Positions 2,032 through 41,447 are shown, counted from the stretch's first letter. The stretch is 46,217 nucleotides of DNA from Frankiaceae bacterium (GCA_031424715.1 JANPHZ010000158.1:1-46217); one strand, 5' to 3'. Numbers and translations are program-made. Notes: a model not told the origin generated them from the sequence alone.

Positions 2032-2775
2032 CTACGTCGTGCGGCTGGCCGTCGGCGTCTTCGTCGCTGGCTTGCTGGTGGCTGGCTTCTTGGTCTGGGG
2101 CTTCCTGGCCGCCGGTTTCTTGAGGGGCGGGCGCTCCAGCGAGGCGAAGACGATCGTGTTGCTGAGGTAGCGCTTGGAGCGCCGGTCGAACTCACCACCG
2201 CAGGTGATCAGGCGCAGGCTCGGGCGCCCGTCGCCGACGTAGACCAGCTCGGTGGGGAAGTTGCGCTTGGCGTAGGTGCGCACGAAGGTCACCCGGAACG
2301 TGGCGAGGCTTCCGTCGGCACGGCGGATCCGGATCGGGTCGTTCTTCTTCAGCGTCCGGATGCGGTTAAAGATGCCGGGGCCGCGATAGCTGTCCACGTG
2401 CCCGACGATCACGGCCGGGCCGGGGTCCCCCGGGGCGGGGCCCTGGCTGTACCAGCCGGCCCGCTGGGGGTCGGCGGGTACGCCGAGGGTTCCGTCGCGT
2501 TGCTTGCGCAAGCCCAGCAGCCGGTCGGTGATCTTCAGGGTGGGGATGCCGAGGGTCACCGGGGCGGCGACCTGGCGCGGGACGGGACGGGCGTCGACGA
2601 GCGGGCCGCGGCCGTTGTCAGCGGCGATGTCCGCCCGAGCGGCTGACACCTGTACAAGGCTGACCACCAGGACGACGGTGATGGCCACGGCCTGTGCGGC
2701 CGGAGCCCACCACTGACGCACCGCACCGGGACCGGCCGCCGAAGCGGCCGTTCCCGGTGCGGTGGTGTGGGTCAT
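2032..2775 (-). CDS. Class F-type sortase (peptidase C60) with a Lys/Pro/Thr-rich C-terminal tail
   Basis: 247 aa. N-terminal TM segment AVAITVVLVVSLVQV, catalytic-type motifs VIVGHVDS and LRLITCGG. The start codon directly abuts the stop of the upstream DUF4331 gene (2775/2776). The C-terminal tail is KKPAARKPQTKKPATSKPATKTPTASRTT. Confidence 0.85.
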   Translation of the reverse strand: MTHTTAPGTAASAAGPGAVRQWWAPAAQAVAITVVLVVSLVQVSAARADIAADNGRGPLVDARPVPRQVAAPVTLGIPTLKITDRLLGLRKQRDGTLGVPADPQRAGWYSQGPAPGDPGPAVIVGHVDSYRGPGIFNRIRTLKKNDPIRIRRADGSLATFRVTFVRTYAKRNFPTELVYVGDGRPSLRLITCGGEFDRRSKRYLSNTIVFASLERPPLKKPAARKPQTKKPATSKPATKTPTASRTT

Positions 2776-4329
2776 CTAGCGGGCGTGGCGAGCCCGAAGG
2801 ACCAGGCCGGCGCCGGCGAGCGCCAGTCCGAGCAGCCCCACGGCGATCGGCGTCACGGGCAGCGAGCTGCTCGATCCACCAAAACCGCTCGAGACCGATC
2901 CGCGGGGTGCAGAGCTGCCCGCCCCAGTGCTCGAGCTGGCCGAGGAGCCGCTGCTCGTGCCCCGAGCCTGCGTGCTGGATCCGGAGTGCGGCAGCGCGAC
3001 GTAGGGGAAGGTCGAGCCGAACTCGAGGTCGTTCTCGTTCACGGCGTCACCGGCAGCGAGCGGCTTGATGATGCCCTTGGTGATAGCGCCCTCGAGCGCC
3101 TGCAACTCGATGTCGACGACGTCGTCGGTGAGGCGACGGCCGTTGGGGAAGCCGGCGTTGTCCTTGGCCAGCACACCCAAGCGGTTGGGGCTGCTGCTCG
3201 GCGGGATCTTGGTGTTGAGCCGCAGCTGCTCAGACGGCGTGACCTTCGGGGGCTGGTTCAGGCCCTTGATCCCGGTGAGGAACGCGGCGACGAGGTCGTC
3301 GCGGGGTGCTGCGGGCGCTTCGATGCCGTAGATGCTCGCGATCAGCTTGGGCACCTCTGGGTCCTTGACTCGCGCGACAGCCTCCATGACGGTGGCGTCC
3401 TGGTCGGGGTTCAAGGAGTTGAACGCGTCCTTGAGCGACACCGGGATGACGACCTCGTTGACGAGCGGTGAGCCCAGTCGGGAGACCTGCACGAAGTCGC
3501 CGGTGGGCGTGGCCTTGCCGGCGGACAGCTGCAGCGTCTGCTGATCGGTGGTGCTCCAGACACCGATGATGCCGCTGTTGTCGCCACCCTTGAGGAGGTT
3601 GGCGGTCGGCACCTGCAGCGCGATGGAGTTGACGTTGTAACCCGTCAGAGTGTCGCTGCCGGCCTCCTTGAGGTTGGTGCCGTAGAGCAGGTCGAACACG
3701 CGCAGGTCGAGGAAGAACGAGTCATCCGCCTGGCCGGCGAAGCTCTTGCCGCCGTCGGTGGTGTCCACGATGGCCTCGTCGCGCAGCGCGGCGTAGTTGG
3801 GCATGGAGGCCATGCCGACGTTGGAGGGGGCCGTCTTGCCGCTCTCCACGAGCGTGGTGGCCGTGCCGGCCGCGTCGAGGACCTCGAGCTTGTAGGTCTG
3901 CTTGAACAGCAGCGTCGGGTCGTCGAAGGAGTTCACCGCCCCGTTGTTGTAGAGGAACGTGGTTCCGGCGCGCTTGTCGTCGTTGGTGAAGGTCCACCGG
4001 TAGGTCAGGTCCGGCTTGGCGTCACCGTTGTTGTCGATCTTGATGTTGTAGCGGTAGCCCTCAGCGCCGAACGGGTAGAAGTTGGGGCCGCCAGCCGCGT
4101 CCTGGAACGGAATCCAGTTGGCGATCAAGGTGGTCGTCTCCGGGCTGTCCGGGCTGACGAAGGCGTAGGTGTCGGTGTTGTCCGACAGCGGGTTGCCGGC
4201 GATGAGCGGCGCCTCGCGGTGACTCGACGCCGTGCCGGTGCCGGGAGCGAGCGCGAGGGCGCTGCCCGTGACTGCGAGACCGGCGGCGGTCAGGGCCGCG
4301 CCTGCTCTGCGGGTTCTGGAACGGTTCAT
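2776..4329 (-). CDS. Secreted DUF4331 family protein (paralog A) with a C-terminal sorting-signal-like anchor
   Basis: 517 aa. Signal peptide with RR (MNRSRTRRAGAALTAAGLAVTGSALALAPGTGTA), then the DUF4331 hallmark SSHREAPLIAGNPLSDNTDTYAFVSPD. A Ser/Gly-rich linker leads to a C-terminal LPVTP + hydrophobic stretch + RARHAR. AGGAGA lies upstream of the ATG. Confidence 0.85.
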   Translation of the reverse strand: MNRSRTRRAGAALTAAGLAVTGSALALAPGTGTASSHREAPLIAGNPLSDNTDTYAFVSPDSPETTTLIANWIPFQDAAGGPNFYPFGAEGYRYNIKIDNNGDAKPDLTYRWTFTNDDKRAGTTFLYNNGAVNSFDDPTLLFKQTYKLEVLDAAGTATTLVESGKTAPSNVGMASMPNYAALRDEAIVDTTDGGKSFAGQADDSFFLDLRVFDLLYGTNLKEAGSDTLTGYNVNSIALQVPTANLLKGGDNSGIIGVWSTTDQQTLQLSAGKATPTGDFVQVSRLGSPLVNEVVIPVSLKDAFNSLNPDQDATVMEAVARVKDPEVPKLIASIYGIEAPAAPRDDLVAAFLTGIKGLNQPPKVTPSEQLRLNTKIPPSSSPNRLGVLAKDNAGFPNGRRLTDDVVDIELQALEGAITKGIIKPLAAGDAVNENDLEFGSTFPYVALPHSGSSTQARGTSSGSSASSSTGAGSSAPRGSVSSGFGGSSSSLPVTPIAVGLLGLALAGAGLVLRARHAR

Positions 4330-4478
4330 GGTTCTCCTCGATCGGGCAAGCGGACACTGCCGCGGGAGGGACCGAGGTCGATGGCGTGAGAGTTGCCAGG
4401 GTCAACGGGCACTCGAGCACAGCGCGTACGGGTCTCGTTCGTCCGGCTAGGGAGAGTGGTTCATTCGGACTAGTTGGC

Positions 4479-5996
4479 TCAGAGCAGGTCGCGGCCGGTC
4501 ACGATGCCGCGCGCCACCAGACCGATGCCGACGAGGACGACCACGGCAGCAGTGAGGACCGGCAAGAGCCGCCCGAGGTTGCGGGTACGGCCAAGCGCCC
4601 AGCCCCGCCGGTCGATGACGGCTTGTGTTCGGAGCAACAGCAGACCGGCGGCGGTCAGCGTGACGGCCATGCCGAGCCCGTAGATCAGTACGAGCAGGAC
4701 GCCGAACCACGCGCGGCCGAGGGCCGTCGCTCCGAGAAGGACGACGAGGGCCGAGGGGCTGGGTACCAGGCCGCCAGCAACACCCATGCCGGCCAGGGTC
4801 CGCCAGCCCAGCGGTCCATCCGGTAGGGGCGCGTGTGAATGGGCCTTGCCGCCGTGGCTGTGCACGAGCCGCTCGGGAGCGGGCTCGGGATCGTGGTCGT
4901 GGGGATGAGGATGGTCGTGCGTGTGGTCGTGCGTGTGGTCGTGCGTGTGGTCGTGGGGGTGGTCGTGCGTGTGCGCTGGTGTACTGCGGACACGACGAAG
5001 AGCCAAGACCAGCAGGTAGATGCCCAGGCTGGCGAGCAGGATGCCGGACACGATCTCGGTCAGCGGTACGACGCGCTCCGGCGCGGCCAGCGTGCCGAGC
5101 GTGAGCAATGCCCCCAGCAGGAGCACTGACGCCGTGTGGGTGAAGGTCACGATCGCACCCAGTTGCAGGGCCTGCCGCCTCGTGCCTCGCTGGCCGATGA
5201 GGTAGGCCGCCATGACGGTCTTGCCGTGTCCGGGAGCCAGCGCGTGCACGATGCCGAAGGCCAGCGACGCAAGGATCGACATGACGGCGAACCCGACGGT
5301 CAGGTCATCTCGGCCGAGGAAGTCGGTGAAGAAGGCGGTCACTCCGCCCACGCCGCGTGGCAACGCCTCGGCGATCGGGTCCTTGCCGGATGCGCCCGCT
5401 GACGAGCAGGGCCCTGGTGAGTACGACGCGCGACCGGACCGGACATCCAGTGGCGACGAGAGGAGGTCCTCTGGGTACGCCGTGAGGAGCGCGGATGTCG
5501 ACACCGCCGGGACGTCGGCGTTACCCAACCGGCCGCAGCGGCTGGCGAGAGTGACTTCCTTCCAGCCCACGCGGCCGTCACCCTGCCCGGCGTCGAAGGC
5601 GAGGGAGGAGCGCGGCGAGGTGCTGGCCGCCAGTTGACACTCGAGCCGCGTCGTCGTGAGCCCGCCAGAGCCCGGCCGGGACTCGCCGCGAGTCGCCCGC
5701 AGCGCCAGATCGGCCGGCGAGCCGTCGACGGTCAAGGACAGCTCTGGGGCGATCCGCGCGCACTCACGCGCGGCGAACCCGTCCAGGCCTCCGGCAGCAC
5801 GGATGTCGCCGCGCGCCTGCACCGTGGGAATCTCGGCCAGGTCGATGACGTGCAGGACCTCGACGCCCTCGGCGACAACGGTGACCTGATCAGCCGTATT
5901 CACCGTGAAGTTGCCGAGAGGGTGCGCGAGGGCAGGCGCGGCTGGCAGAAGGGCGAGTGCCGTGCCCACGACGAGTACTGCAAGCAGTCGCCTCAC
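4479..5996 (-). CDS. RcnA/NicO-family (nickel/cobalt-type) metal transporter with an N-terminal extracytoplasmic domain and a His-rich loop
   Basis: 505 aa. Signal peptide MRRLLAVLVVGTALALLPAAPALA, a ~200-aa soluble domain, then a polytopic part with the HALAPGHGKT signature and the loop HTHDHPHDHTHDHTHDHTHDHPHPHDHD. 4-nt overlap with the upstream TPR gene stop. Confidence 0.8.
   Translation of the reverse strand: MRRLLAVLVVGTALALLPAAPALAHPLGNFTVNTADQVTVVAEGVEVLHVIDLAEIPTVQARGDIRAAGGLDGFAARECARIAPELSLTVDGSPADLALRATRGESRPGSGGLTTTRLECQLAASTSPRSSLAFDAGQGDGRVGWKEVTLASRCGRLGNADVPAVSTSALLTAYPEDLLSSPLDVRSGRASYSPGPCSSAGASGKDPIAEALPRGVGGVTAFFTDFLGRDDLTVGFAVMSILASLAFGIVHALAPGHGKTVMAAYLIGQRGTRRQALQLGAIVTFTHTASVLLLGALLTLGTLAAPERVVPLTEIVSGILLASLGIYLLVLALRRVRSTPAHTHDHPHDHTHDHTHDHTHDHPHPHDHDPEPAPERLVHSHGGKAHSHAPLPDGPLGWRTLAGMGVAGGLVPSPSALVVLLGATALGRAWFGVLLVLIYGLGMAVTLTAAGLLLLRTQAVIDRRGWALGRTRNLGRLLPVLTAAVVVLVGIGLVARGIVTGRDLL
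4912..4971. repeat. 12-bp tandem repeat (tggtcgtgcgtg, about 5 copies, one variant) encoding the (HTHD)n part of the transporter His-rich loop
   Basis: Read directly in the sequence at 4912-4971; in frame (12 bp = 4 codons). Confidence 0.85.
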
Positions 5997-7303
5997 CCGA
6001 GAGACTTCAACAGCTTCCGCGCCGCCGGCGCTTGCAACGGGCTGAACGAGGGGTTCAGGTCGAGTGCGCCGCTCAAGGACCGTTTCGCGGCTGCGCGCTC
6101 ACCGACGGCCGCCTCTATCGCGCCCAGGTGGAAGCGCAGATAGGGCAGCCGGGTACCGAGTCGCTGCGCCTTACGCGCAATGGGCAGAGCTTGCGCCGAG
6201 CGACCGGACTTGTGCAGGGCCCAGGCGTAGGCGTCCTGAACCAGGATCGCGTCGGGGCGGTCGCGGAAGGCTGCGGTGGCGTACTTCAGTGCGGTGGCGG
6301 CGCTGCCGTGGTCAGCCTCGAAGAGCGCGAGCTCGAGGTCGACGTTTGCCCCCGACGCGGCGAAAAGCTGCTGGGTGGCCCGCACGACGTCGTACTGCTC
6401 CTGGGCAGCTGCCGGCTGGCCCGTTGCCTCCAGGAGCTCGCCGAGTTCGATGAGATAGCCCGGTTGGGGCTGTGCCTGCACCACCTCGCGGTAGAGGGCG
6501 AGCGCGGCGGTCGGATCCGAGACAGCTAGCGCCTTGGCCTGACCGGCCAGTGCCTGCACGTTTCCAGGGTCCTGCGCCAGCGCCTGCTCGTAGGCGGCCC
6601 GGGCGCCAGCGAGCTCGCCAGCGTTCCAGGCCAGTTCGCCCAGGTAGAACTGCGCGAACGCCTGGTCTCCCGGGTTGCGGGTCGCGGCGGCAGCGCGCTC
6701 CAGCGCCTCACGCGCGCCCGCTACGTCGCCACGCAGCTCGCGCTGGTAGCTGGCCCGGGCGAAGGACGGGGTGCCCGGCTGCAGATCGAGCATGCGTTGG
6801 ACCGCTGCCGCCGCCTGGTCGTAACGGCCGAGCTCGGTGAGTGCATCTGCCTTGACGCCGTACGCCGTCGCGCTGAAGTCGTTGATCCGCAGGGCGGCGT
6901 TGACCAGGGTGAGGGCTTCGGCGAAGTCGTGCCGAGCAGCCGCGAGCGTGGCTTGACCGGTGATCGCAGCGTCATTGTCTGCCGGACGCAGTGCCAAGGA
7001 CTTCGCGAAGGCGCCCTCGGCCTTGCCGTAGAAGGACGGGTCGGCAGTGATCCGCGATTGGCTCACATACGCGAGGCCGAGGTCCGACCAGGCGCGGAAG
7101 TTGCGGGGCGACTCGCGCAGCTGCCCCTGCAGGTCGTTGATGGCGGCGGTCAAGGGGTCAGTGGCCGCCGCGGAGACTGCAGGTGCGGACGGCTCGACCT
7201 GCGGACTGCGGGGCGCCCCTGCTGCCGCGCCCACGACGAACAGGGCCGCCGCGAGCCCGACCACGGCAGCGCCCAGGGCGGCCGTGCGGGCGCCTCGCCT
7301 CAT
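5993..7303 (-). CDS. Membrane-anchored/secreted tetratricopeptide-repeat (TPR) protein
   Basis: The track ORF is 5993..7552, but the probable start is Met84 (MRRGARTAALGAAVVGLAAALFVVGAAAG, signal/anchor) at 7303. The rest is Ala/Leu-rich TPR-like repeats (e.g. AWSDLGLAYV, GRYDQAAAAVQRMLDLQPG, YEQALAQDPGNVQAL). Confidence 0.75.
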   Translation of the reverse strand: MRRGARTAALGAAVVGLAAALFVVGAAAGAPRSPQVEPSAPAVSAAATDPLTAAINDLQGQLRESPRNFRAWSDLGLAYVSQSRITADPSFYGKAEGAFAKSLALRPADNDAAITGQATLAAARHDFAEALTLVNAALRINDFSATAYGVKADALTELGRYDQAAAAVQRMLDLQPGTPSFARASYQRELRGDVAGAREALERAAAATRNPGDQAFAQFYLGELAWNAGELAGARAAYEQALAQDPGNVQALAGQAKALAVSDPTAALALYREVVQAQPQPGYLIELGELLEATGQPAAAQEQYDVVRATQQLFAASGANVDLELALFEADHGSAATALKYATAAFRDRPDAILVQDAYAWALHKSGRSAQALPIARKAQRLGTRLPYLRFHLGAIEAAVGERAAAKRSLSGALDLNPSFSPLQAPAARKLLKSLG

Positions 7304-7330
7304 GCGCTGCCTTTCGATGGACGGTCCGTC

Positions 7331-7380
7331 GGTGTCTCCAGTATTCGCTCTCGGGGGCCCGCTGGATCCCTGGAGACCGC
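7331..7380. promoter_or_regulatory. Inverted repeat (gtctccag ... ctggagac) in the divergent intergenic region between the TPR operon and DUF4331 paralog B; candidate operator
   Basis: An 8-9 bp perfect arm pair read in the sequence, about 30-75 nt upstream of the TPR gene start. No known consensus recognised. Confidence 0.25.
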
Positions 7381-7569
7381 CCCCGCCGTGTTTCGTCCGG
7401 GTTTGCCCGGCGACCCATCCGACGGGGGCCGGTGGGCGAACACCAGGAGACGATTCTCGTGTGGCGCGAGCTGCGCGGGAGTGCCACCGTTCTGAGGTGC
7501 TCGTCCGCCACAGAGATGTGTGCGCTGTTCGTCTGACCCGTACGCAGGCCACACCACCGTAGGAGACTC

Positions 7570-9435
7570 ATGTCGTTGTCCCCCCGACCGTCCGTGCGCA
7601 AGCGCGCGATGGTCGTCCTCACCGCTGCGGCCACCGTCGCCGGCGGCGCCGCGCTGCTCGGCCCGGGCACCAGCTCGGCGTCCAGTCACCGCGAGGCGCC
7701 GTACATCAGCACCGACCCGGCTGTCGACAACACCGACACCTATGCGTTCGTCAGTCCTGACGACGCCAACACCGTCACCCTGATCGCCAACTGGGCGCCG
7801 TTCTCGGAGCCGGCGGGTGGCCCCAACTTCTTCCCGTGGGCGACCGACGCGGCCTACGACGTCAACGTCGACAACGACGGTGACGCCAAGCCCGACATCA
7901 CCTACCGCTGGACGTTCAACGACGTCGACCTCCGCGGTGCCGCCAAGCGCTCCGCTGACGGCTCCGCGGACGGCACGTTCCTCTACGCCGACGGTCCGGT
8001 CACCGAGCTCGACGACCCCAACCTGCTGTTCCGGCAGACCTATGACCTGACGGCCCTCGTCGAGAACGGCACGTCGACCCCGACGTCGACCATCCTCATC
8101 AACGACGGCAAGGTCGCCCCGTCCAACGTCGGCACGGCGACCATCCCCGACTACACCGCGCTGCGGGCCAAGGCCATCACGGCCGTGCCCGGTGGCGGTT
8201 CGTCGTACGTCGGACAGGCGGACGACCCGTTCGCGCTCGACCTGCGGGTCTTCGACCTGCTCTACGGCAGTGACCTCAAGGCGACCGGCTACGACACCCT
8301 GTCGGGCTACAACGTCAACAGCGTCGCGCTGAAGCTGCCGAAGAACCTCCTGGCCGCCGCTGGCGACGCGAGCAAGAACCCGGTCATCGGTGTCTGGTCC
8401 ACGACCAGCCGCTTCCAGACCCGCGTCTTCAAGGACACCAACGGCGCGCCGTCGACCAGTGCCACGGCCAGCAGTGACGCGCTCGCGGGCAGCGGTCCGC
8501 TCGTGCAGATCTCGCGTCTGGGCAACCCGCTCGTCAACGAGGCGGTCGTCCCGGCCAACCTCAAGGACTACTTCAACCGGTCCACGCCGGACAAGGACGC
8601 GCAGTTCCTGAAGAAGGTCCAGAACCCCGAGATCCCCCAGCTCGTCGAGGGTCTCTACATGGTCCCGAACCCGAACAAGACCGCGGGTTACGAGAACCGC
8701 CCCGACCTCGTCGCGGCGTTCCTCACCGGCATCTCCAAGGCCAACGGCGAGGGCACCCAGCCCGGGACCGGCAGCCTGACCAAGGGCTCGCCCGCGGTCG
8801 ACCTCAACTCGCTCGCGCTCAACGCGGTCAGCCCCAACCCGGCTCCCGCGGAGTACCTGCGACTGAACATGAACGTGCCCCCGACCCCCGAGACGGCGAA
8901 GTCCTACAGCCGGCTCGGTGTCATCGGTGGTGACGTTGCGGGCTTCCCGAACGGCCGTCGCCTCAACGACGACGTGATCGACATCGCCCTGCAGGTGCTC
9001 GAGGGCGTGCTCGTCCCCGGTTCGCCGGCGGCGGTCAAGGGCCTCGGCGACGGTGTCGCGGACAACGACCTCAAGAACACGGCGTCGTTCCCGTACATCG
9101 CCGGCCCGCACACGGGCAGCGACCCGCGGATCGGTCAGAACCAGGTCTCGTTCGAGCAGGTCTTCACCAGCTCGGGCGGCACGGTCTCGACGCAGATCAA
9201 GAACATCACCCCGGCCATCCCGGGTGGCTTCGTGCAGCTCTACCGCGTCAACGCTGACGGCTCGCTGACGGGCTTCGGCACGTCGGCTCTCAACGCCGCT
9301 GGCACCGCCACCGTCGTGCGCAGCTTCAAGGCGCCGATCGGCAGCAAGCTGACGCTGAACTACCGCGTGTTCCCCAAGCGCGGTAACGCAGCTGGTGTCC
9401 AGCGCGGCCTGCCCTCGACCTTCACGGTCAAGTAG
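7570..9435 (+). CDS. Secreted DUF4331 family protein (paralog B) with an extra C-terminal beta-rich domain and no cell-wall anchor
   Basis: 621 aa. Signal peptide MSLSPRPSVRKRAMVVLTAAATVAGGAALLGPGTSSA, then SSHREAPYISTDPAVDNTDTYAFVSPDD. Collinear similarity to paralog A (FDLLYG, GYNVNS.AL, RLGNPLVNE, GFPNGRRL.DDV.DI.LQ). GGAGAC lies before the ATG. Confidence 0.85.
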   Translation: MSLSPRPSVRKRAMVVLTAAATVAGGAALLGPGTSSASSHREAPYISTDPAVDNTDTYAFVSPDDANTVTLIANWAPFSEPAGGPNFFPWATDAAYDVNVDNDGDAKPDITYRWTFNDVDLRGAAKRSADGSADGTFLYADGPVTELDDPNLLFRQTYDLTALVENGTSTPTSTILINDGKVAPSNVGTATIPDYTALRAKAITAVPGGGSSYVGQADDPFALDLRVFDLLYGSDLKATGYDTLSGYNVNSVALKLPKNLLAAAGDASKNPVIGVWSTTSRFQTRVFKDTNGAPSTSATASSDALAGSGPLVQISRLGNPLVNEAVVPANLKDYFNRSTPDKDAQFLKKVQNPEIPQLVEGLYMVPNPNKTAGYENRPDLVAAFLTGISKANGEGTQPGTGSLTKGSPAVDLNSLALNAVSPNPAPAEYLRLNMNVPPTPETAKSYSRLGVIGGDVAGFPNGRRLNDDVIDIALQVLEGVLVPGSPAAVKGLGDGVADNDLKNTASFPYIAGPHTGSDPRIGQNQVSFEQVFTSSGGTVSTQIKNITPAIPGGFVQLYRVNADGSLTGFGTSALNAAGTATVVRSFKAPIGSKLTLNYRVFPKRGNAAGVQRGLPSTFTVK

Positions 9436-9480
9436 GCCCGCAGTACCGCTCGCGCAGTACCGTTCGCGTAAGGCATGACG

Positions 9481-9516
9481 CCACCGGGGCGGTCCCTGTC
9501 GGGGCCGCCCCGGTGG
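9481..9516 (+). terminator. Strong GC hairpin (12-bp perfect stem ccaccggggcgg / ccgccccggtgg) downstream of DUF4331-B
   Basis: Perfect inverted repeat read directly. It is preceded at 9439-9468 by a direct 15-bp duplication, cgcagtaccg(c/t)tcgcg. There is no U-tail, as is common in high-GC actinobacteria. Confidence 0.6.
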
Positions 9517-9546
9517 CGCGTCCGCACCACCTTCCTCGGAGGACTC

Positions 9547-9954
9547 ATGCGTCTGCTCCCGCCCGTCGTGCTGGCTCTGGTCGCCCTGACCGGGTGCTCG
9601 GGATCCTCGGGCGGACAGGCTCGTGCGACGGTGCCGCTGCCGGCGCCGGAGGCCTTCACCGACGGGACGTGTCGGGTGGCTGCTCCCGACATCGTCGCGA
9701 TCGGCGAGCAGGTCGACCGGCTCGGCGACGGGCCGAAGGTCGACACCGCCGTCAAGGTCGCGCTGCGCGAGGCACAGGTGCGACTGGCCGAGCTCGCCAC
9801 GGCAGCTGAGCCGGCGTACAAGCCGGCGCTGGACGCGCTCGTCGTCACGGTCGGGGGCGTGCGGATCCGTGCGGACGGCAACGTCTACGACCCCGAGCTC
9901 ACCACGCAGCTCGGCCGCGACTACCGCGGCGTGCTCGACGTCTGCCTGCGCTGA
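9547..9954 (+). CDS. Putative lipoprotein
   Basis: The internal ATG of track ORF 9475..9954 gives MRLLPPVVLALVALTGCSGSSGG (lipobox L-T-G-C). Family not recognised. Confidence 0.6.
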   Translation: MRLLPPVVLALVALTGCSGSSGGQARATVPLPAPEAFTDGTCRVAAPDIVAIGEQVDRLGDGPKVDTAVKVALREAQVRLAELATAAEPAYKPALDALVVTVGGVRIRADGNVYDPELTTQLGRDYRGVLDVCLR

Positions 9955-10609: not shown

Positions 10610-11731
10610 GTGCGTGAGCTGCACGTCGTCGCCCTGAGCGAGGACGGACGCTCGGTCCTGCTGGCGCCGAGCAAGAAAGCCCCCGTCGGCGCCTTCCGGG
10701 TCAAGCTCGACGGCAAGCTGTCCGCCGCGCTGCGGGGGGAGCTGCCCCGGGAGGGCGAGAGCGGCCCGCGCGCCGTCGAGGTCTCGCCCAAGGAGATCCA
10801 GGCGCGCATGCGCGCGGGTGAGTCGGCCCAGCAGATCGCCGATGCCGCGGGGGTGCCGGTCGCCCGGGTCGAGCGCTTCGCCGGACCGGTGCTGTCCGAG
10901 CGCGAGCGGATCATCGACCAGGCCCGCGCGGGCTACCTCACCCGCGGTCGTCTCGGCCCCAGCCAGCTGCCGCTGGGCGACGCGGTGCAGGCCGCGCTCG
11001 CCGAGACCGACTCGCTCAAGACCGAGTCAGTGCAGTGGTCCACCCGTCGGCTCGAGTCGGGGCACTGGCTCGTGCAGGTCAGCTACGTCGCGCGTGCGCG
11101 CGCCAAGACGGCCAGCTGGGTGTTCGACGCGGGAACCCGAGCCCTCACGGCCTCCGATACCGCCTCGTCGGCACTGGGGCACCGCAGTGACGTGCCTGCG
11201 ACCGGGGCCGCTGCCGCGGTCGCGGCGGTAGCAGCTGCGGCGCACCGGGCGGCCTCGGGTTCTGCCGGCGCCCGGCGTACGACGCGGACGGCGAAGAAGG
11301 CGGTGGCTGCCAAGCCGGCCAAGAAGGCCAGTCCGGCCAAGAAGGCCAGCCCGGCCAAGAAGGCCAGTCAGCCCAAGAAGGCGGTGGCCGCCACACCGGC
11401 CAAGAAGGCGGTGGTCGCGAAGCCGGCCAAGAAGGCGGTGTCCGCGAAGACGGCGGTGCCCGCGAAGACGGCGGTGCCCGCGAAGACGGCGGTGCCCGCG
11501 AAGACGGCGGTGCCCGCGAGGAGGGTGGCCGCCAAGCCGGCCAAGAAGGCCAGCGCTCCGAGGACGATGAGCCCGCCCGCCCTGCGCGTGGTCCCGCCGC
11601 CCCCGGCCCCGGTCCAGGAGCCGGAGGAGCTGCAGCAGCCGCGCAAGCGGGCCGCCGGCGAGCGTGCGACCGTGCCTGCATGGGCCGACGTACTGCTCGG
11701 GATCTCGCCCCGGGACAAGGCAGACGGCTGA
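10610..11731 (+). CDS. sepH: Septation protein SepH (DUF3071 N-terminal domain, basic Ala/Lys/Pro-rich repeat region, conserved C-terminus)
   Basis: 373 aa. MRELHVVALSEDGRSVLLA... and EIQARMRAGESAQQIADAAGVPVARVERFAGPVLSER are typical of DUF3071/SepH. Then come PAKKA/AKTAVP repeats. GGAGGA lies before the GTG. Confidence 0.8.
   Translation: MRELHVVALSEDGRSVLLAPSKKAPVGAFRVKLDGKLSAALRGELPREGESGPRAVEVSPKEIQARMRAGESAQQIADAAGVPVARVERFAGPVLSERERIIDQARAGYLTRGRLGPSQLPLGDAVQAALAETDSLKTESVQWSTRRLESGHWLVQVSYVARARAKTASWVFDAGTRALTASDTASSALGHRSDVPATGAAAAVAAVAAAAHRAASGSAGARRTTRTAKKAVAAKPAKKASPAKKASPAKKASQPKKAVAATPAKKAVVAKPAKKAVSAKTAVPAKTAVPAKTAVPAKTAVPARRVAAKPAKKASAPRTMSPPALRVVPPPPAPVQEPEELQQPRKRAAGERATVPAWADVLLGISPRDKADG
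11444..11515 (+). repeat. Perfect 18-bp tandem repeat x4 (gcgaagacggcggtgccc = AKTAVP) inside sepH
   Basis: Read directly; in frame. It is embedded in a wider degenerate (P)AKKA(S/V) repeat region at about 11290-11550. Confidence 0.9.
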
Positions 11732-19581: not shown

Positions 19582-20319
19582 GTGCCTCCTCCGACTCGTC
19601 GCCGCGGCGGGGGTCCGGACCTGCCGTACCGCCTGATTGCGGGGGTGGAGCCGTGTCCGAAGGGTTGGCTCGTCGTCGGCGCCCGACTGCAGGGGGTCAC
19701 GGCCTTCCCGACGGAACCGGAGGTCTTCCCGACCTTCGCCGGGATCTTGGACTACCGGCCGTCGTACGACGTGATCGCGATCCACTGCCACCTGTCCTTC
19801 CCGGAGGACGACACCCCGGGCGGGCGGACCTGTGATCGGGAGGCCCGCAAGCTGCTCGGATTCGCGCGTGGCGGAGCGATCAAGTCGCCGCCCTCCCGGC
19901 ACTACCTGCGGACCCAGGATCTCGACGCGCGGGCGCAGAAGGGCCTGGATCCGATCAGCGCCCGGATGATGCGGCGCTACGCCGAGGTCGCCGAGGAGAT
20001 GCAGCCCTACCGGCAGCGGCAGGTGTTCGAGGTGCACCCGGAGCTGTCCTTCTACCAGCTCAACGACGACCAGCCGATGCAGCACTCCAAGCACACCGAG
20101 GAGGGCATTCTCGAGCGGCGCCGCCTTGTCGAGACGCGGATCCCCGGGGTTGACGTGGTCCTGGACGCGCAGCTGCCGGGTGGGGTCACCGCCCGGCACC
20201 TGCTGGATGCGACGGCAGACTTGGTGACGGCCCGGCGCATCGCTGCCCGGGCCGTCGACCGGCTCCCTGAAGATCCTGAGTGGGATGAGCAGGGAGTCCG
20301 GATGGAGCTGCTCCGCTAG
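19582..20319 (+). CDS. DUF429 (RNase H-fold, predicted nuclease) family protein
   Basis: Part of track ORF 19351..20319. An in-frame GTG at 19582 gives VPPPTRRRGGGPDLPYRLIAGVEPCPKGWLVVGA..., and RTCDREARKLLGFARGGAIKSPPSRHYL resembles the DUF429 core. The start is uncertain. Confidence 0.65.
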   Translation: MPPPTRRRGGGPDLPYRLIAGVEPCPKGWLVVGARLQGVTAFPTEPEVFPTFAGILDYRPSYDVIAIHCHLSFPEDDTPGGRTCDREARKLLGFARGGAIKSPPSRHYLRTQDLDARAQKGLDPISARMMRRYAEVAEEMQPYRQRQVFEVHPELSFYQLNDDQPMQHSKHTEEGILERRRLVETRIPGVDVVLDAQLPGGVTARHLLDATADLVTARRIAARAVDRLPEDPEWDEQGVRMELLR

Positions 20320-20321
20320 TT

Positions 20322-20347
20322 GGCGCGCACGGTCAGGTGCACGCGCC
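20322..20347. terminator. GC hairpin (ggcgcgcac-ggtcag-gtgcacgcgcc) between the convergent DUF429 and pilin genes, overlapping the pilin stop codon; possible bidirectional terminator
   Basis: Imperfect inverted repeat read directly. Only 13 nt separate the two stop codons. Confidence 0.4.
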
Positions 20348-20686
20348 TGTCGCCGTGACCACCCCGCTGGCGTAGGTGATGAGGTACCCCTCAGTGGCCA
20401 CCGTCGCTGTCGGGAAGGTCTTCAGCGTGGCATTTGCGCCGGTGGTGAGATCGGATGACGTCGCGGCATAGGTGCCGACCTTCGCTTTGTAGGCCTCTGC
20501 GGCCGTCACAACGGTCTTCTTGTCGGCCTTGCACGCGCTGGCCTTGCTGTCGCTCGTTGCACTACCCACGGCAAAGACGACGATCCCGGCGAGGATGCCA
20601 AGGATGACGATGACGATGAGTAGTTCGATGAGGGTGAAGCCATCCTGACGGCCGGCGTCGAGCCGGGTCCGAAGCCGGTCGTTCAT
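20333..20686 (-). CDS. pilA: Type IV (major) pilin with prepilin N-terminal cleavage/methylation motif
   Basis: The start is at Met23 of track ORF 20333..20752, with GAAGGAGACCTC before the ATG. MNDRLRTRLDAGRQDG|FTLIELLIVIVILGILAGIVVFAV is a classic G|FTLIE class III signal. 117 aa, with a Cys pair (ACKAD ... GACT) near the C-terminus. Confidence 0.85.
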   Translation of the reverse strand: MNDRLRTRLDAGRQDGFTLIELLIVIVILGILAGIVVFAVGSATSDSKASACKADKKTVVTAAEAYKAKVGTYAATSSDLTTGANATLKTFPTATVATEGYLITYASGVVTATGACT

Positions 20687-20817
20687 GAGGTCTCCTTCGT
20701 GGGTGGGGTGTGCTCCTGTTAAGAACTGTGCTGCTGCGCCGGGCGGTGTCACATCGGACGATCGGTCGGGCCGATCGGACCTTCGGTCAGTTCCGGTAGT
20801 CCCTCTGGACTAGTGCG

Positions 20818-22314
20818 CTACTGGCTGCGCCAGCTCTTGACGTCGATGCTGTAGGGCGCGTAGTTGCTGACCGTGGCGACGGACCGCTGTCGAGCGGTGG
20901 TGCCGCTACTTGCGTCTGTCGCCTCGACGAGGACAGTGCGGAAGGGTGGGGGCGGCGTGCCTGCACCTGACGACGCGGAGATGGCCAGGGCATCGCTGCC
21001 GACGGCCGATGCCTTCAGTTCCAGTGAGTGCGCCACTACCCCGCCCCGCGCGGCGGCCACGGTGCCGTTGGTCGAGAACACCTCGACGTCGCCATTCGGC
21101 GCGAAGATCTTCGCGTTGACCTGCATGGCGCTGTTGTTGCCTCCTCCGGTCAGCAGCGGGGCTCCGACGACCTGCGCCGCGTACGAGGAGTCCGTGTAGG
21201 AGGAAGCGCCCACGATGTTGACGGGGACTGATGAGCCGCCTGTCGGTGGGCTGAAGAGGGTCACCGCCCCCTTGCGCACGTCCAGTCGAGCGTTGCTGCC
21301 GAAGACCCACGTGACCCCGTATGCGAAGCGGTACGGGGCGACGCTCCCGAGCAGGGGCAGCACTGCTGCCTGGGACATGGCCTTGGCGTCGTCCATACCC
21401 ATCGCGCTGCAAGCGTTCGCAGGAACGGTCGTGTCTGTCGTCGCGGAGCGCTGCCCTCCAATGACCTCGATGTTGGCGTCGTCGATGACCCACGGAGCGG
21501 CAGCGAAGTAGTACAAGCCGCTGACGAAGTAGTTCTTGCTGTTGTTGGTGAGCAAGGGCGGTGCGGCGTACCGTCCGGGGTAGTAGACGCGGCACTGGTT
21601 GGAGCCAGACGTCACCAGCGTGCCGCCGGTCAACACCGCAGGCAGGGCTGATGCGACAGGCGGTGCGCTGGGCAGGACCACCACGGGCAGGCTCTGAGTC
21701 AGTGTCTGCTCGGTGCAGGAGCGGAGCTGCCCCGTCCCGATCAGACGGACCTTCGTCAGCGCATCGAGCCCGGCTTGACAATTCGGACCGTTCGGCCGGA
21801 CCAGGTCTCCCTCGGTGATCTCGACGGGCTTGCCGACGTCCCCGTTGTCCACCGCGCCGTTCAGGAAGACTGAGCCGCCCACCTGTAGGTCCTGTGAGGT
21901 GCCAGACTGCGTGCGGAAGGCACCGTCGGAGGAGCTCGTGACGACGACGGCGTAGTTGCGGGCGGCGGCCTCGCCGGTCAGGGCTGCGCGGCCCGCAAGC
22001 GTGCTGCACGTCCAGGCGGCCGTCGTGCCGTTAGCGGTCAGCGTGCCGCTGCCGCTGCCGCTCGTTGGGCTGGTGCAACTGGTCGGCATACCCGACGCCA
22101 TCTCCGAACGGAGCTGCTGGAGTGCCCTGTCGACGCCGCCGTCCAGGGCGTACTGGACCTGGGTCCGGTCGCGGACCTGTCCGCCTACCAGAGTCGTCGA
22201 AGCGTTCTTGTCCAAGGCCACCGTCGCGAAGAGGCCGACCACGACAAGGAAGACGAGCGCGAGGACGAGCGCCACGCCTTCCTCGCCGTGCATCCGGTTC
22301 CATCGCCGTCTCAT
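20818..22314 (-). CDS. Large PilX-N-like pilus-associated protein (candidate tip/adhesin or minor pilin-like component)
   Basis: The track ORF 20818..22680 is over-extended. Met123 at 22314 overlaps the upstream stop (ATGA) and gives MRRRWNRMHGEEGVALVLALVFLVVVGLFATVALDKNASTTLVGG, a PilX/TadG-like N-terminus. The remaining ~450 aa are Thr/Ser/Gly/Ala/Val-rich. Confidence 0.6.
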   Translation of the reverse strand: MRRRWNRMHGEEGVALVLALVFLVVVGLFATVALDKNASTTLVGGQVRDRTQVQYALDGGVDRALQQLRSEMASGMPTSCTSPTSGSGSGTLTANGTTAAWTCSTLAGRAALTGEAAARNYAVVVTSSSDGAFRTQSGTSQDLQVGGSVFLNGAVDNGDVGKPVEITEGDLVRPNGPNCQAGLDALTKVRLIGTGQLRSCTEQTLTQSLPVVVLPSAPPVASALPAVLTGGTLVTSGSNQCRVYYPGRYAAPPLLTNNSKNYFVSGLYYFAAAPWVIDDANIEVIGGQRSATTDTTVPANACSAMGMDDAKAMSQAAVLPLLGSVAPYRFAYGVTWVFGSNARLDVRKGAVTLFSPPTGGSSVPVNIVGASSYTDSSYAAQVVGAPLLTGGGNNSAMQVNAKIFAPNGDVEVFSTNGTVAAARGGVVAHSLELKASAVGSDALAISASSGAGTPPPPFRTVLVEATDASSGTTARQRSVATVSNYAPYSIDVKSWRSQ

Positions 22315-22907
22315 CCGAGTCGCCCCCGAAGGCAGCCGCTGTACGAGTACCCCTGGGTGCCGATGTCCTGGGCGTAGCTCGGCAGCGTCACCGACAGTCG
22401 CCCGGCAGGGCAGTCCGCCGCAGTGGTCGTCGTCACGGTCACGGGCGTCGCCGAGCCGAGGTTGCGCAGCAGCAGGGAGTCGTCCGCCGCGCCGGTCGGG
22501 GGACACAGCCGCCGTACGAGCTGGTACCGGGTGCCGCCACCCACGGGGATGACGGGGTCGGGCGTCACGACGTAGGAGGAGCGCCAGGTGCCAGCTCCTG
22601 GCACGGGTGTGGGATCGGTCGGTGTCGCGGTCCACTCGGTCCAGCTCATGGTCATTACGGCCGTGCCCGCGCCCGAGCAAGGCGTGGAGGCGGTGCTCGG
22701 GGCCCCATCCGAACTGGCAAGGTCACGGTTGAGGTAGCTGCTCAGCACGACAGCTCCGCCGGTGTGGTCGTCCCGCTCGATCGTGTACGTGCCGTTCTTC
22801 AGAAAGGTGATGAGCGCTCCTGTGATGGCGCCCATGATGATCGTGAGGATGGCCGCAGACAGCAGCAGTTCGACCAGGGTGAAGCCGTCCTCGTCACGCT
22901 GTCTCAC
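22311..22907 (-). CDS. Prepilin-type minor pilin-like protein
   Basis: An in-frame GTG at 22907 overlaps the upstream stop (GTGA). VRQRDEDG|FTLVELLLSAAILTIIMGAITGAL carries the G|FTLxE motif. About 198 aa. Confidence 0.75.
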   Translation of the reverse strand: MRQRDEDGFTLVELLLSAAILTIIMGAITGALITFLKNGTYTIERDDHTGGAVVLSSYLNRDLASSDGAPSTASTPCSGAGTAVMTMSWTEWTATPTDPTPVPGAGTWRSSYVVTPDPVIPVGGGTRYQLVRRLCPPTGAADDSLLLRNLGSATPVTVTTTTAADCPAGRLSVTLPSYAQDIGTQGYSYSGCLRGRLG

Positions 22908-23287
22908 GGCCGCTTCACCACGGTCACAGAGAGCGCGAAGCCATTCCCCGTGACCTTGACGGGGACCCCGACCAGTTGTGCGCACGGCTGACTGTCGACG
23001 GCCACCGCGGGGTCGAAGGTGACCGCGTAGGCAGCGCTGCGCGGGACTTCGGTCAGCGTTGGCGGGGCCAAGACGACTCCGCAGGCAGGTGTTCCGGACA
23101 AGCCCTTGACGAACTCAGCAGCAGAGGCGAGGACGCTCTCGGCCTGCGCCTGCTCGCGGTTGATGCTCGTCGTCGTCACGTTCGTCACCAGAGCACCCGT
23201 CAAGGCGACGATGCCGATGCCGAGGACGGCCAGGGCTACGAGAATCTCGACGAGCGTGTCGCCGGCTTCTCCTTGCGGCCGGGGCAT
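22904..23287 (-). CDS. Prepilin-like minor pilin (atypical +1 residue)
   Basis: Met109 of track ORF 22904..23611, 1 nt after the pilC stop. MPRPQGEAG|DTLVEILVALAVLGIGIVALTGAL has Glu at +5 but Asp instead of Phe at +1. 127 aa with two Cys. Confidence 0.65.
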   Translation of the reverse strand: MPRPQGEAGDTLVEILVALAVLGIGIVALTGALVTNVTTTSINREQAQAESVLASAAEFVKGLSGTPACGVVLAPPTLTEVPRSAAYAVTFDPAVAVDSQPCAQLVGVPVKVTGNGFALSVTVVKRP

Positions 23288-23288
23288 G

Positions 23289-24425
23289 TCAGATCGACCT
23301 GCTGCTGTTGAAGATGCCGTACATCGCGGACACCAGCGCCACCGCCACAAAACCAACGACCAGGCCCATGACGATGATGATCGCCGGCTCGAACAGGTTG
23401 GTGAAGCGCTTGATCTTGTAGTCGAGCTCACGCTCGAAGTAGCCGGCGGCCGTCTCGAGCTGGTGGTCCAGGGTCCCCGTCGACTCGCCGACGCGGAACA
23501 TCTGCTTGGCCGAGGGTGGGAAGAGCCCGCTCTCGTTGAGCGGAGTGGCCAGGCCCTCACCCCGGAGCATCCGTTCGCGGACCTCCACCAGCCCGCGGCG
23601 GTAGACGGCATTGCTGGTCGCCGCCGAGGTCACCCGCATGGCCTCGGGCAGGGGGACGCCAGCCTGCATCATGCTGCTCAGGATCCGGCAGAAGCGCTCG
23701 AGCACGACGTGCTGGACCATGTCGCCGACGACCGGTAGGCGCAGCAGAACGCGGTCTCGCAGGGTCTTGCCGGTGTCGGTCCGCATCGCGGCCACGATCA
23801 GGATCACCACCACGAGCAGAGCCGCCACGATGTACAGGCCGTTGTCGCTGAGGAAGGCCGAGAACGAGAGCATGATGCGTGTGGGAAGGGGCAGTTCAGC
23901 GCCCAGGTCTGCGAAGAAGACCTCGAACTTGGGCAACACGACGGTCGTGAGGATGATGACCACCACAACGCCGAGCGCCATGATGACCGCTGGATAGGTC
24001 AGGGCCGACGTGATCTTCCGGCGCGCATCCACGTCGCGCTCGATGTAGTCCGAGAGCTGCACGAGCACGGTGTCAAGCTGACCGGTCAACTCCGCCGACC
24101 GCAGGATGCCTAGGTAGTAGGGCGGGAACGCGGAGGAGTGTTGCCCTGCGGCGTCGGCAAGGGTTGAGCCGGACCGCAGCGACTCGACGATGTCCTCGAC
24201 GATGGACCGAAAGTACTTGTTGCCCATCTCCTCATGGATTGCCTCGAGCGCGTCCAGGATCGGGATGCCTGCCTTGATAAAGACCGCGAGCTGACGGCTG
24301 AAGTGCATGAGGTCCTTGCGAGGAACCTTTTTAGAGGTCAGCTCGAACTGCAGGATCGACTTCTTCGGCCCCTTTGCCGTCGCGTCCACCTTGCCGGTAA
24401 CGCTCAGCTGATCGATGACGCTCAT
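23289..24425 (-). CDS. pilC: Type IV pilus platform protein PilC (T2SS F family)
   Basis: 378 aa with the two-fold T2SSF-like organisation (HFSRQLAVFIKAGIPILDALE and RFCRILSSMMQAGVPLPEAM) and 3 TM segments. Confidence 0.9.
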   Translation of the reverse strand: MSVIDQLSVTGKVDATAKGPKKSILQFELTSKKVPRKDLMHFSRQLAVFIKAGIPILDALEAIHEEMGNKYFRSIVEDIVESLRSGSTLADAAGQHSSAFPPYYLGILRSAELTGQLDTVLVQLSDYIERDVDARRKITSALTYPAVIMALGVVVVIILTTVVLPKFEVFFADLGAELPLPTRIMLSFSAFLSDNGLYIVAALLVVVILIVAAMRTDTGKTLRDRVLLRLPVVGDMVQHVVLERFCRILSSMMQAGVPLPEAMRVTSAATSNAVYRRGLVEVRERMLRGEGLATPLNESGLFPPSAKQMFRVGESTGTLDHQLETAAGYFERELDYKIKRFTNLFEPAIIIVMGLVVGFVAVALVSAMYGIFNSSRSI

Positions 24426-24432
24426 AAGAACC

Positions 24433-39881: not shown

Positions 39882-40042
39882 GCGTTCCTCGTTCTCGGGT
39901 CGGTGGCAGGGGACGCACGCGGCGGGTCGGCGCCCATCGTCGCACGATCGCCGGGATACCCCCTCCCGGCCAGGCCTTCGTTGCCCTAGGTTGGGGCACT
40001 AGGTTGGCCTGGTACGACGAGTACGACGGAGGAGGTGGGCAC

Positions 40043-40783: not shown

Positions 40784-40860
40784 TCCGACCCGTCCCTGGG
40801 GCGCTCTGCGCGGGGCCGCACGAGTGTCGTCCTTTGCTCGGTGTTGTCGAGTGTCGTCTC

Positions 40861-40893: not shown

Positions 40894-40938
40894 TTTCAGC
40901 CTGTCAGCTCCATCGGGCCGAAACGTAGAGGAAGAGAC

Positions 40939-41445: not shown

Positions 41446-41447
41446 CG

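Follow-up and report, generated by a model that had tools for sequence, protein, structure and literature searches.

A possible SigK-controlled metal-handling module built from DUF4331 proteins, a TPR protein and a NicO-type permease in a Frankiaceae bacterium

We analysed a 46,217-nucleotide stretch of a Frankiaceae bacterium genome (GCA_031424715.1, JANPHZ010000158.1:1-46217; hereafter the window), which between positions 2,032 and 9,435 encodes a class F sortase, two paralogous proteins of the family DUF4331 (DUF4331-A and DUF4331-B), a NicO/RcnA-type permease with a fused ectodomain, and a protein with tetratricopeptide repeats (TPR). The explanation we favour is a module controlled by SigK-RskA, of the extracytoplasmic function (ECF) sigma factor group ECF19, which would handle, on the outer side of the membrane and within the cell wall, a divalent transition metal, likeliest Ni(II) or Cu(II). 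We hold this explanation with about even confidence. A previous sequence-only reading had described five open reading frames (ORFs) with DUF4331-B divergent from the rest, and had suggested that they handle a divalent metal at the cell envelope. The ORFs, their coordinates and junctions, the domain families and the orientation were all borne out by ORF calls and profile searches. The metal-handling role is still the best reading of the locus, and the exported and membrane proteins do form a conserved functional unit. Two features had been missed, namely the SigK-type promoters common to both divergent units and the N-terminal SSH motif of the DUF4331 proteins.

The conserved unit turned out to be smaller than the five genes. 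Scanning for DUF4331 with one genome per species returned 593 loci, of which the best 80, all from Actinomycetota, were analysed. Linkage was scored by tblastn with the window proteins around the 59 DUF4331 genes having at least 4.5 kb on both sides, and partners were sought within 4.5 kb. The TPR gene and both halves of the permease (ectodomain and membrane domain) were found near DUF4331 in 53 of these 59 cases and the TPR gene adjoined DUF4331 in 57, with a near-universal gene order of DUF4331, TPR, permease in genera including Streptomyces, Lentzea, Nonomuraea, Micromonospora, Nocardioides and Kibdelosporangium. All-against-all clustering of 1,073 called genes revealed no further family linked comparably, the next neighbours by frequency being an ABC ATPase (19 loci), a kinase (16), RskA (14) and SigK (12). 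The sortase gene lies directly 3′ of DUF4331 in only about ten loci, and some DUF4331-sortase pairs (L001, L002, L082, L083 and L085) come without TPR or permease. From these linkage counts we therefore recognise a three-gene core of DUF4331, TPR and NicO, to which the sortase is an accessory. The proposal of one functional unit thus holds for the core, whereas the five genes are not linked as a unit across relatives. Two related metagenome contigs (L081 and L084) share the window's exact five-gene layout and its flanking genes; in this lineage a DUF4331-sortase pair has been placed after the core, with another, free DUF4331 gene opposite it. An apparent TPR-permease fusion in one of these contigs (942-aa ORF, L084 1487-4315, + strand) was rejected, as its TPR similarity stops at residue 388 and an Arg-rich frame follows, which we read as a frameshift or assembly error.

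The permease exceeded the threshold of PF03824 (NicO; 48.9 bits, cut-off 27.7) over residues 240-469 only, and the membrane domain alone scored 49.3 bits. Against NF007454, the RcnA-like model for nickel/cobalt efflux, it reached 117.6 bits, under the cut-off of 195, and by this score it is not an RcnA equivalog. The former designation as an RcnA/NicO-like transporter therefore stands in its NicO half and not in its RcnA half. The permease shares with NicO and with the Escherichia coli efflux pump RcnA the NicO match, the HAxxPGHGK motif and a His-rich loop after the third helix. Unlike RcnA, it has an ectodomain of about 205 residues (25-230) preceding the membrane domain, which confirms the extra domain of about 200 aa noticed earlier, and no RcnR-type repressor is linked to it. 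The His-rich loop was also described correctly: it is HTHDHPHDHTHDHTHDHTHDHPHPHDHD, rich in both His and Asp. In an alignment of 42 permease homologues (A2) the invariant parts of the membrane domain are HALAPGHGK (H251, P255, G256, H257, G258 and K259 being identical in all 42), THT-S, the PSPS helix and the histidines of HSHGGxAHxH, and the His/Asp-rich loop varies in length. Because it comes after three helices, the loop should face the cytoplasm, if the inferred topology is right. The AlphaFold 2 model (mean predicted local distance difference test score, pLDDT, of 71; ectodomain blocks mostly 85-98) shows a beta-sandwich, then six long helices.

The ectodomain is where the case for metal capture begins. 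Its invariant positions in the same alignment are A22, A24, H25, P26, G28, N29, C79, C120, C154, C197 and several acidic residues. No Pfam family matched residues 1-230 of the permease at E ≤ 10. A HMMER search with the ectodomain recovered 1,887 representative clusters at E ≤ 1e-3, and the best 150 were examined. In 144 of these 150 representatives HPLGNF, or a near variant, directly follows a canonical signal-peptidase site of the form AXA|H, at which cleavage is predicted; the site reads ASA in 53, AAA in 29 and ALA in 14, then AGA, AQA and others. PGH[GS]K was kept in 97 of the 98 representatives at least 430 aa long. Many homologues carry an EF-hand-like insertion (DTDGDGxLSxxEL) after the first beta-hairpin of the ectodomain (A2 columns ~85-110), which the window permease and its closest relatives do not have.

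This arrangement is known from the anglerases Ang-1 and Ang-2, whose domains have a 100 % conserved His directly after the signal peptide (Franco Cairo et al., Nat Commun 2025, PMC12537917; PDB 9GCE). Ang-1 binds Cu(II) with a Kd of ~74 nM and Ni(II) with a Kd of ~220 nM through a mono-histidine brace at His1, is proposed to feed its fused permease, and has a ZrgA entry as its nearest structural neighbour (PMC12537917). Foldseek of our ectodomain against the PDB placed 9gce, the Cu-bound Ang-1 domain, on top (E=4.6e-4, probability 1.00; target-normalised TM-score 0.38, rmsd 5.5 Å, 144 columns), with the same zinc-bound ZrgA entry and PA4063 in second and third place (E=0.04-0.05, probability 0.92-0.97). 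Because the TM-score is modest and sequence similarity is absent, it is supported that the domain works like an anglerase, and membership in the anglerase family is not established. A match of the permease to PA4063 among PDB sequences (E=0.065) was discarded, since it covered only the low-complexity His-rich loop.

Similar to the anglerases, the window permease starts with a signal peptide and then, by prediction, His1, on a modelled and perhaps Ig-like beta-sandwich fused ahead of a multi-helix metal permease. It differs in the permease, which belongs to PF03824 instead of the PF13795 of anglerases (no HupE_UreJ_2 match in its membrane domain at E ≤ 10), in the four invariant Cys and the HPLGNF start, and in the DUF4331 and TPR partners and the putative SigK control, which are not reported for anglerases. 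The models thus support a large permease family with the anglerase architecture set on NicO instead of HupE/UreJ-2. ZrgA of Vibrio cholerae (8F1B) and PA4063 of Pseudomonas aeruginosa (7AMX), both of DUF2796, resemble the ectodomain in fold and are likewise metal-binding partners of membrane transporters; however, these are separate soluble proteins of Gram-negative bacteria, work with ABC transporters and bind zinc via internal His. An N-terminal-His beta-sandwich in the structural vicinity of anglerases and ZrgA argues for capture or hand-over of metal outside the cell and not for plain efflux.

The DUF4331 proteins seem to carry an N-terminal metal site of their own. Both match PF14224 over model positions 1-421 (512 bits for DUF4331-A, 484 bits for DUF4331-B) and they are 49 % identical to each other. 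DUF4331-A consists of a signal peptide, SSHREAP (4207-4227), the DUF4331 domain, a Ser/Gly-rich linker and a C-terminal tail. In DUF4331-B the signal peptide and SSHREAP (7681-7701) precede a DUF4331 domain with insertions and an extra C-terminal domain of ~104 aa (9121-9432), for which Pfam gave no match. As it has neither a membrane helix nor a sortase-type tail, DUF4331-B is probably released or non-covalently held, in line with the free copy proposed before. The sequence xA-SSHREAP is invariant in 117 of 118 DUF4331 homologues and in all 65 locus genes with a readable N-terminal motif. H37 is the only invariant His of the family (alignment A1), there is no conserved Cys or Met, and the PF14224 model begins exactly at the first Ser of SSH. 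If cleavage follows the invariant Ala, position −3 is small (G, S, A) and position −2 variable, as at signal-peptidase sites with a final Ala; signal peptides do not usually contain an invariant Ser-Ser. The sequence NH2-Xaa-Xaa-His is the classical amino-terminal Cu(II)- and Ni(II)-binding (ATCUN) motif. The mature DUF4331 N-terminus is probably NH2-Ser-Ser-His and could serve as a site of this type.

Leaderless members of the family point the same way. A paralog in Rugosimonospora (L052, 3688-5094, + strand) starts with M-SSHREAP, with an in-frame stop four codons upstream and no alternative start. A metagenome scan for ATG-Ser-Ser-His-Arg-Glu-Ala-Pro gave 80 matches (L087-L166), 54 of them DUF4331 homologues whose second residue aligns with the first Ser in the window proteins. 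The complete leaderless proteins have about 453-485 aa and neither signal peptide nor C-terminal anchor. No recurrent partner was identified in their neighbourhoods, where we saw an aminotransferase, a molybdenum hydroxylase, a GGDEF-EAL protein and a nitrilase; three of the genes lie near genes for SigK-like sigma factors (L121, L140 and L160). Taken together, the leaderless M-SSH starts, the invariant A|SSH and the start of the Pfam model would place SSH at the very N-terminus, exposed in exported forms when the leader is cut off and in leaderless ones when the initiator Met is removed, and the family appears to need it there.

Regarding regulation, word enrichment in 85 regions upstream of DUF4331 recovered two boxes, GACCAATCCG and GCTCCGAAT, at a fixed spacing and 60-130 nt before the DUF4331 start; these words correspond to the paired boxes of a promoter of ECF type. 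The pattern C[CA]ATCC-N12-15-[CG]CGAA[TC] occurs 47 times in 1.48 Mb (loci plus window), mostly with 15-nt spacing and located before DUF4331 or, within that intergenic region, on the other strand. With one mismatch allowed, it is found 5′ of DUF4331 in 27 of 83 regions, against 0.012 expected per 350 nt. The opposite-strand copies precede an ECF sigma factor gene which scored 292.8 bits with NF007228 (SigK; cut-off 226) and whose product is closest to SigK of Mycobacterium tuberculosis (structure 4nqw, E=2.8e-51). In those loci rskA (PF10099, 106 bits) follows sigK, and sigK-rskA adjoins the operon in 23 of the 80 loci, in several families. The motif also precedes genes for fasciclin lipoproteins (Mpt70/Mpt83 family) and for a CMAS-family methyltransferase (ufaA1 family). 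The SigK promoter consensus of Veyrier et al. 2008 is said to be of the CCATCC…CCGAAT type. By these patterns the operon appears to be switched on by the stress sigma factor SigK.

Further genes near the operon carry the motif. The fasciclin lipoprotein genes lie within a few kb of DUF4331 in Kitasatospora and Streptomyces (L021 405-1088, − strand; L034 13121-13822, + strand) and have it upstream. In Nocardioides sp. Soil774 a gene for CbiM, the S component of a Co/Ni energy-coupling factor transporter with an MHVPDGFL start (L072 14416-15172, + strand), directly follows the permease and has its own SigK-type motif. In Streptomyces the gene of a membrane-anchored molybdopterin oxidoreductase (PF00174; L035 6257-7874, + strand) has the motif upstream and sigK-rskA nearby.

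In the window the site before DUF4331-B is the only exact match with 15-nt spacing and has the top position weight matrix (PWM) score, 19.3. The minus-strand candidate before the TPR gene scores 9.8, the best on that strand of the 46-kb window and no better than the maxima of shuffled sequences (mean 10.3, largest 22.0). The top site of each strand falls within the 266-nt divergent region. Because 19.3 is above the mean shuffled maximum and below the largest, the promoter argument rests on position and on recurrence across genomes, by which the genes of this organism would also depend on SigK. A second match to the pattern at 42557-42580 has 12-nt spacing and looks like chance.

According to the literature, it is not known which signal SigK-RskA responds to or what its regulon does (PMC7509140; PMC10449499). 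One gene that SigK activates in M. tuberculosis is sigC (PMC4821874), whose product prevents starvation for copper (PMC7924339); this chain gives a hint towards copper and no more. With the mycobacterial SigK-RskA regulon (mpt70, mpt83, dipZ, ufaA1 locus) our loci share SigK, RskA and the motif before fasciclin and CMAS-family genes. However, DUF4331, TPR proteins and NicO-type permeases are not described as SigK targets in the literature we searched. A metal permease operon as a core SigK member would be a concrete hypothesis for the signal and function of the regulon and, if true, the first functional handle on a regulon that includes Mpt70 and Mpt83.

The accessory sortase reached 169.8 bits with NF033748 (class_F_sortase; cut-off 166) and E=3.8e-19 with PF04203. 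Near its N-terminus a membrane helix spans residues 22-46, and catalytic-type motifs with His, Cys and Arg are all present, in VGHVD (2392-2406), LITCGG (2194-2208) and, for the conserved Arg, RYLSN (2158-2172). Past the catalytic domain it extends into a Pro/Lys/Thr-rich tail of 32 residues (PPLKKPAARKPQTKKPATSKPATKTPTASRTT; 2035-2130, − strand), many homologues being shorter (190-225 aa). Its likely substrate is DUF4331-A, the only ORF of the window with a tail of the sorting-signal kind, which reads …SAPRGSVSSGFGGSSSSLPVTPIAVGLLGLALAGAGLVLRARHAR. We found no LPXTG or LAXTG in DUF4331-A, although the hydrophobic helix and basic tail are present; SAPTGGVSTGFGG is the peptide form of a candidate class F signal, as opposed to LPXTG. 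The suggestion of a wall-anchored DUF4331 can thus not be based on LPXTG and rests on another C-terminal signal that correlates with an adjacent sortase.

This correlation was seen among 77 DUF4331 C-termini, of which 12 have no anchor, 55 a plain hydrophobic helix with basic residues and ten a helix preceded by a motif, P-x-[GA]-[GAS]-[VIA]-x-[ATS]-G, usually then x-G-G. The motif occurs in nine of nine DUF4331 genes with a class F sortase gene 3′ and in one of 68 without (a weak match; Fisher p=6e-11, for a motif defined post hoc on the same loci as tested). Of 25 homologues of the window sortase (at least 53 % identity) on contigs >5 kb, at least 14 have a DUF4331-A homologue on the same contig, and in two of three look-ups the gene 5′ of the sortase homologue was the DUF4331-A orthologue, the third lying at a contig edge. 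The sortase and DUF4331-A therefore appear to be a dedicated pair using a non-canonical, non-LPXTG signal; the enzyme would cleave at the proposed motif, and DUF4331-A is probably fixed covalently to peptidoglycan by its own class F sortase.

Four class F sortase genes not paired with DUF4331 (L004 5871-6650; L051 2-508; L008 1003-1743, − strand; L072 1491-2771) have unrelated upstream partners with Gly-rich ends (APDTGAGG, MPNGAADTGDG, PTAVEAGISG, LPTAVNAGAAG) before a hydrophobic helix and basic tail, which suggests a general class F sorting signal. Like Cutibacterium acnes SrtF and Actinoplanes SrtF1-4, the window enzyme passes the NF033748 cut-off and has the His/Cys/Arg motifs. However, the one characterised class F enzyme is reported as a housekeeping LPXTG sortase, and ours seems to serve a single protein family. 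A 2026 study called the physiological roles of class F enzymes unknown and saw no phenotype in a quadruple mutant (PMC13251363); the pair offers a candidate natural substrate and recognition motif. In an Actinomycetota metagenome-assembled genome (L085 7039-10933) the neighbours of a DUF4331-sortase pair encode an ECF sigma factor that shares just 27 % identity with SigK from locus L057, a possible anti-sigma factor of 235 aa, a thioredoxin-like protein, a membrane protein of DsbD/CcdA type and a DUF3179 protein. In their thioredoxin and CcdA parts these genes recall DipZ, a member of the mycobacterial SigK regulon.

The TPR protein, the last member of the core, has an N-terminal membrane anchor (7214-7282), then the TPR array. 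TPR_16, TPR_2, TPR_19 and TPR_14 exceeded their thresholds, and there is a weak resemblance to the TPR domain of CcmH/CycH, to NrfG and to Ycf3. The array is probably extracytoplasmic and the protein probably a scaffold.

In the mechanism we propose, signal-peptide cleavage at AXA|H would expose His1 of the permease on a disulfide-stabilised beta-sandwich, an "anglerase-like" mono-histidine-brace domain. The DUF4331 proteins, whether wall-linked, membrane-tethered or free, would bind metal in the zone of the wall and hand it over to His1 of the ectodomain, with the TPR protein as a scaffold. The ectodomain would then supply the six-helix NicO/RcnA-type permease for uptake, and the cytoplasmic His/Asp-rich loop would take the metal. 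What we infer here is the binding of metal, its identity, the direction of transport and the hand-over between the proteins. Four hints bear on identity: the NicO permease and its loop would suit Ni/Co, the ectodomain Cu/Ni, the ATCUN-type DUF4331 terminus Cu/Ni and the CbiM neighbour Co/Ni. Nickel is favoured, with copper as the main alternative, because nickel alone fits all four.

A bolder version joins four claims: that DUF4331 is an unrecognised, widespread Ni(II)/Cu(II)-binding family acting through an obligatory SSH (ATCUN) terminus; that with the anglerase-like NicO permease and the TPR scaffold it forms the main output of SigK-RskA; that SigK-RskA is an envelope metal-supply sensor; and that class F sortases attach such proteins via a new non-LPXTG Gly-rich signal. 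That all four hold together we consider tentative and somewhat improbable.

Several results weigh against the metal-uptake explanation, some of them given above: the modest TM-score of the 9gce match, the minus-strand promoter score within the shuffled range and the post hoc tail motif. Among PDB sequences the ectodomain had no real match, including no similarity to 9GCE. The direction of transport cannot be read from homology, because RcnA is an exporter and the NF007454 cut-off was missed. No inverted repeats or operators of metal regulators were enriched in the 85 DUF4331 upstream regions, an Rfam scan of the whole window found no family at gathering score and no riboswitch (NiCo, cobalamin or other), and sigK and rskA are absent from the window. 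The leaderless paralogs, presumably cytoplasmic, show that the DUF4331 family extends beyond the cell surface. For the ATCUN reading, cleavage must fall after Ala and not after Ser-Ser; an alternative cleavage at ASS|H would leave His1, as in the ectodomain, so that an N-terminal Cu/Ni site is predicted either way. The DUF4331 model (predicted TM-score 0.70) has a confident beta-rich core at residues 50-375 and pLDDT below 50 at residues 1-44, and so gives no geometry of the site. Solved structures gave no match to DUF4331 by sequence at E ≤ 1, and by fold the best one (E=0.012, TM about 0.1) is not meaningful. Structure prediction, advised in the sequence-only reading, gave the ectodomain a modest resemblance to metal-binding domains and DUF4331 none to any solved structure.

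The same proteins could be turned the other way round, with DUF4331 as an extracytoplasmic metal-dependent enzyme or effector, the permease exporting metal from the His-rich loop as donor, and ectodomain and TPR protein loading DUF4331. Export is what the RcnA-type relatives do, the His/Asp-rich loop should face the cytoplasm, and the TPR protein weakly resembles the assembly factors CcmH/CycH, NrfG and Ycf3. About 420 residues are conserved in DUF4331, and many Asp, Arg and Asn among them are invariant, beyond the needs of a simple chaperone, and the strict 1:1:1 linkage would suit a client with its maturation factors. However, one invariant His and no conserved Cys or Met leave no obvious buried catalytic metal site, the leaderless paralogs have no linked permease or TPR gene, and N-terminal-His ectodomains have so far been described on proposed uptake permeases. 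We consider such maturation of a metalloprotein unlikely. Export also underlies detoxification, already offered in the earlier reading, in which an RcnA-like Ni/Co efflux pump expels metal, and the ectodomain and DUF4331 hold it in the wall against re-entry. The best NCBIfam match is indeed a nickel/cobalt efflux model, source annotations read "nickel/cobalt exporter", and the His-rich loop is like that of RcnA. The missed NF007454 cut-off and the likeness of the ectodomain to capture domains argue against it, as do the apparent ECF sigma control in place of any linked gene or operator for a metal-sensing repressor (RcnR/CsoR, ArsR/SmtB or Nur type) and the CbiM uptake component with the same promoter motif after the operon in one Nocardioides locus; detoxification seems to us more unlikely still.

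Finally, the operon could be a SigK envelope-stress module without any metal role, for remodelling or monitoring of the envelope, its NicO-like domain moving another solute. The other candidate regulon members (fasciclin proteins, CMAS-family methyltransferase) have no assigned metal role, and NicO belongs to a broad superfamily, and a weak DsbD_2 match (E=0.012) was seen. The membrane helices, however, lack the conserved Cys pairs needed for DsbD/CcdA electron transfer. The invariant HAxxPGHGK and HSHGGxAHxH, the His/Asp-rich loop, the N-terminal His of the ectodomain and the SSH of DUF4331 all argue for a metal, and we regard this alternative as quite improbable, the least likely of those considered.

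A further parallel in layout is the copper uptake system of Bacillus, YcnI with the CopC-CopD-type YcnJ, in which an extracytoplasmic N-terminal-His protein tethered by a helix stands beside a permease with its own N-terminal-His domain. A C-terminal membrane helix with basic residues is likewise found in most DUF4331 proteins (55 of 77). YcnI and YcnJ nevertheless belong to unrelated folds and families, have no TPR protein or sortase, and are controlled by a copper-sensing repressor, not by an ECF sigma factor. In the literature we searched, no paper was found for "DUF4331" or "PF14224", and the SSH N-terminus, the DUF4331-specific class F signal and the membership in the SigK regulon appear to be undescribed. 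The three-gene operon is widespread in soil Actinomycetota, including many Streptomyces, yet unstudied. If our explanation is true, it adds a second permease family for N-terminal-His metal "fishing" domains, together with wall-anchored and free protein partners.

Table 1. Features of the locus in window coordinates; signal-peptide, domain and motif functions are predictions.
Feature	Position	Strand	Remarks
Class F sortase	2032-2775	−	247 aa; NF033748, PF04203
DUF4331-A	2776-4329	−	517 aa; PF14224
Basic tail RARHAR	2779-2796	−	DUF4331-A
Hydrophobic helix	2797-2847	−	DUF4331-A
LPVTP	2848-2862	−	DUF4331-A tail, after APRGSVSSGFGG
Candidate sortase-F signal APRGSVSSGFGG	2875-2910	−	DUF4331-A tail
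NicO/RcnA-type permease with fused ectodomain	4479-5996	−	505 aa; PF03824
Permease membrane domain	4482-5306	−	NicO match
GGLVPSPSAL	4746-4775	−	Permease membrane domain
HSHGGKAHSHAP	4827-4862	−	Permease membrane domain
His/Asp-rich loop HTHDHPHDHTHDHTHDHTHDHPHPHDHD	4890-4973	−	Permease residues 342-369
HALAPGHGK	5220-5246	−	Permease residues 251-259
Permease ectodomain	5307-5924	−	Starts HPLGNF (5907-5924) at His25; four invariant Cys
Permease signal peptide	5925-5996	−	Ahead of His25
TPR protein	5993-7303	−	436 aa from internal ATG at 7303; full ORF 5993-7552
Candidate weak SigK (ECF19)-type promoter of TPR-permease-DUF4331-A-sortase, GGATCC-N15-GCGAAT	7375-7337	−	34 nt before TPR ATG
Putative SigK (ECF19)-type promoter of DUF4331-B, CCATCC GACGGGGGCCGGTGG GCGAAC	7409-7447	+	~125 nt before ATG
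DUF4331-B	7570-9435	+	621 aa; PF14224
Predicted lipoprotein (…LVALTGC…)	9475-9954	+	159 aa; starts 40 nt 3′ of DUF4331-B

The genes of the minus strand are tightly packed. The TPR stop and the GTG start of the permease overlap by 4 nt (5993-5996), the stop of DUF4331-A is followed by the sortase ATG with zero spacer, and 149 nt separate the permease from DUF4331-A; the divergent region between the TPR gene and DUF4331-B spans 7304-7569. Between 1800 and 10700 we found no intrinsic terminators above chance and no sigma-70 promoters, because of which co-transcription of the four minus-strand genes is plausible. The predicted lipoprotein may be co-transcribed with DUF4331-B, and its membership in the module is uncertain. 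It had no Pfam or NCBIfam match, and in none of the 80 genome loci was it seen close to DUF4331; in L081 a gene of about its size lies 3′ of the DUF4331-B homologue.

The flanking genes are of housekeeping type and encode a DEDD exonuclease, a DUF3071 protein and an M48 peptidase. The C-terminal half of the DUF3071 protein (10610-11731, + strand) is made of short Ala/Lys/Pro-rich repeats (PAKKAS and AKTAVP units), and ORFs overlapping them in other frames are artefacts of the repeats. The G+C content of the window falls to 0.65-0.67 at 20001-26000 and 40001-42000, against 0.69-0.76 elsewhere.

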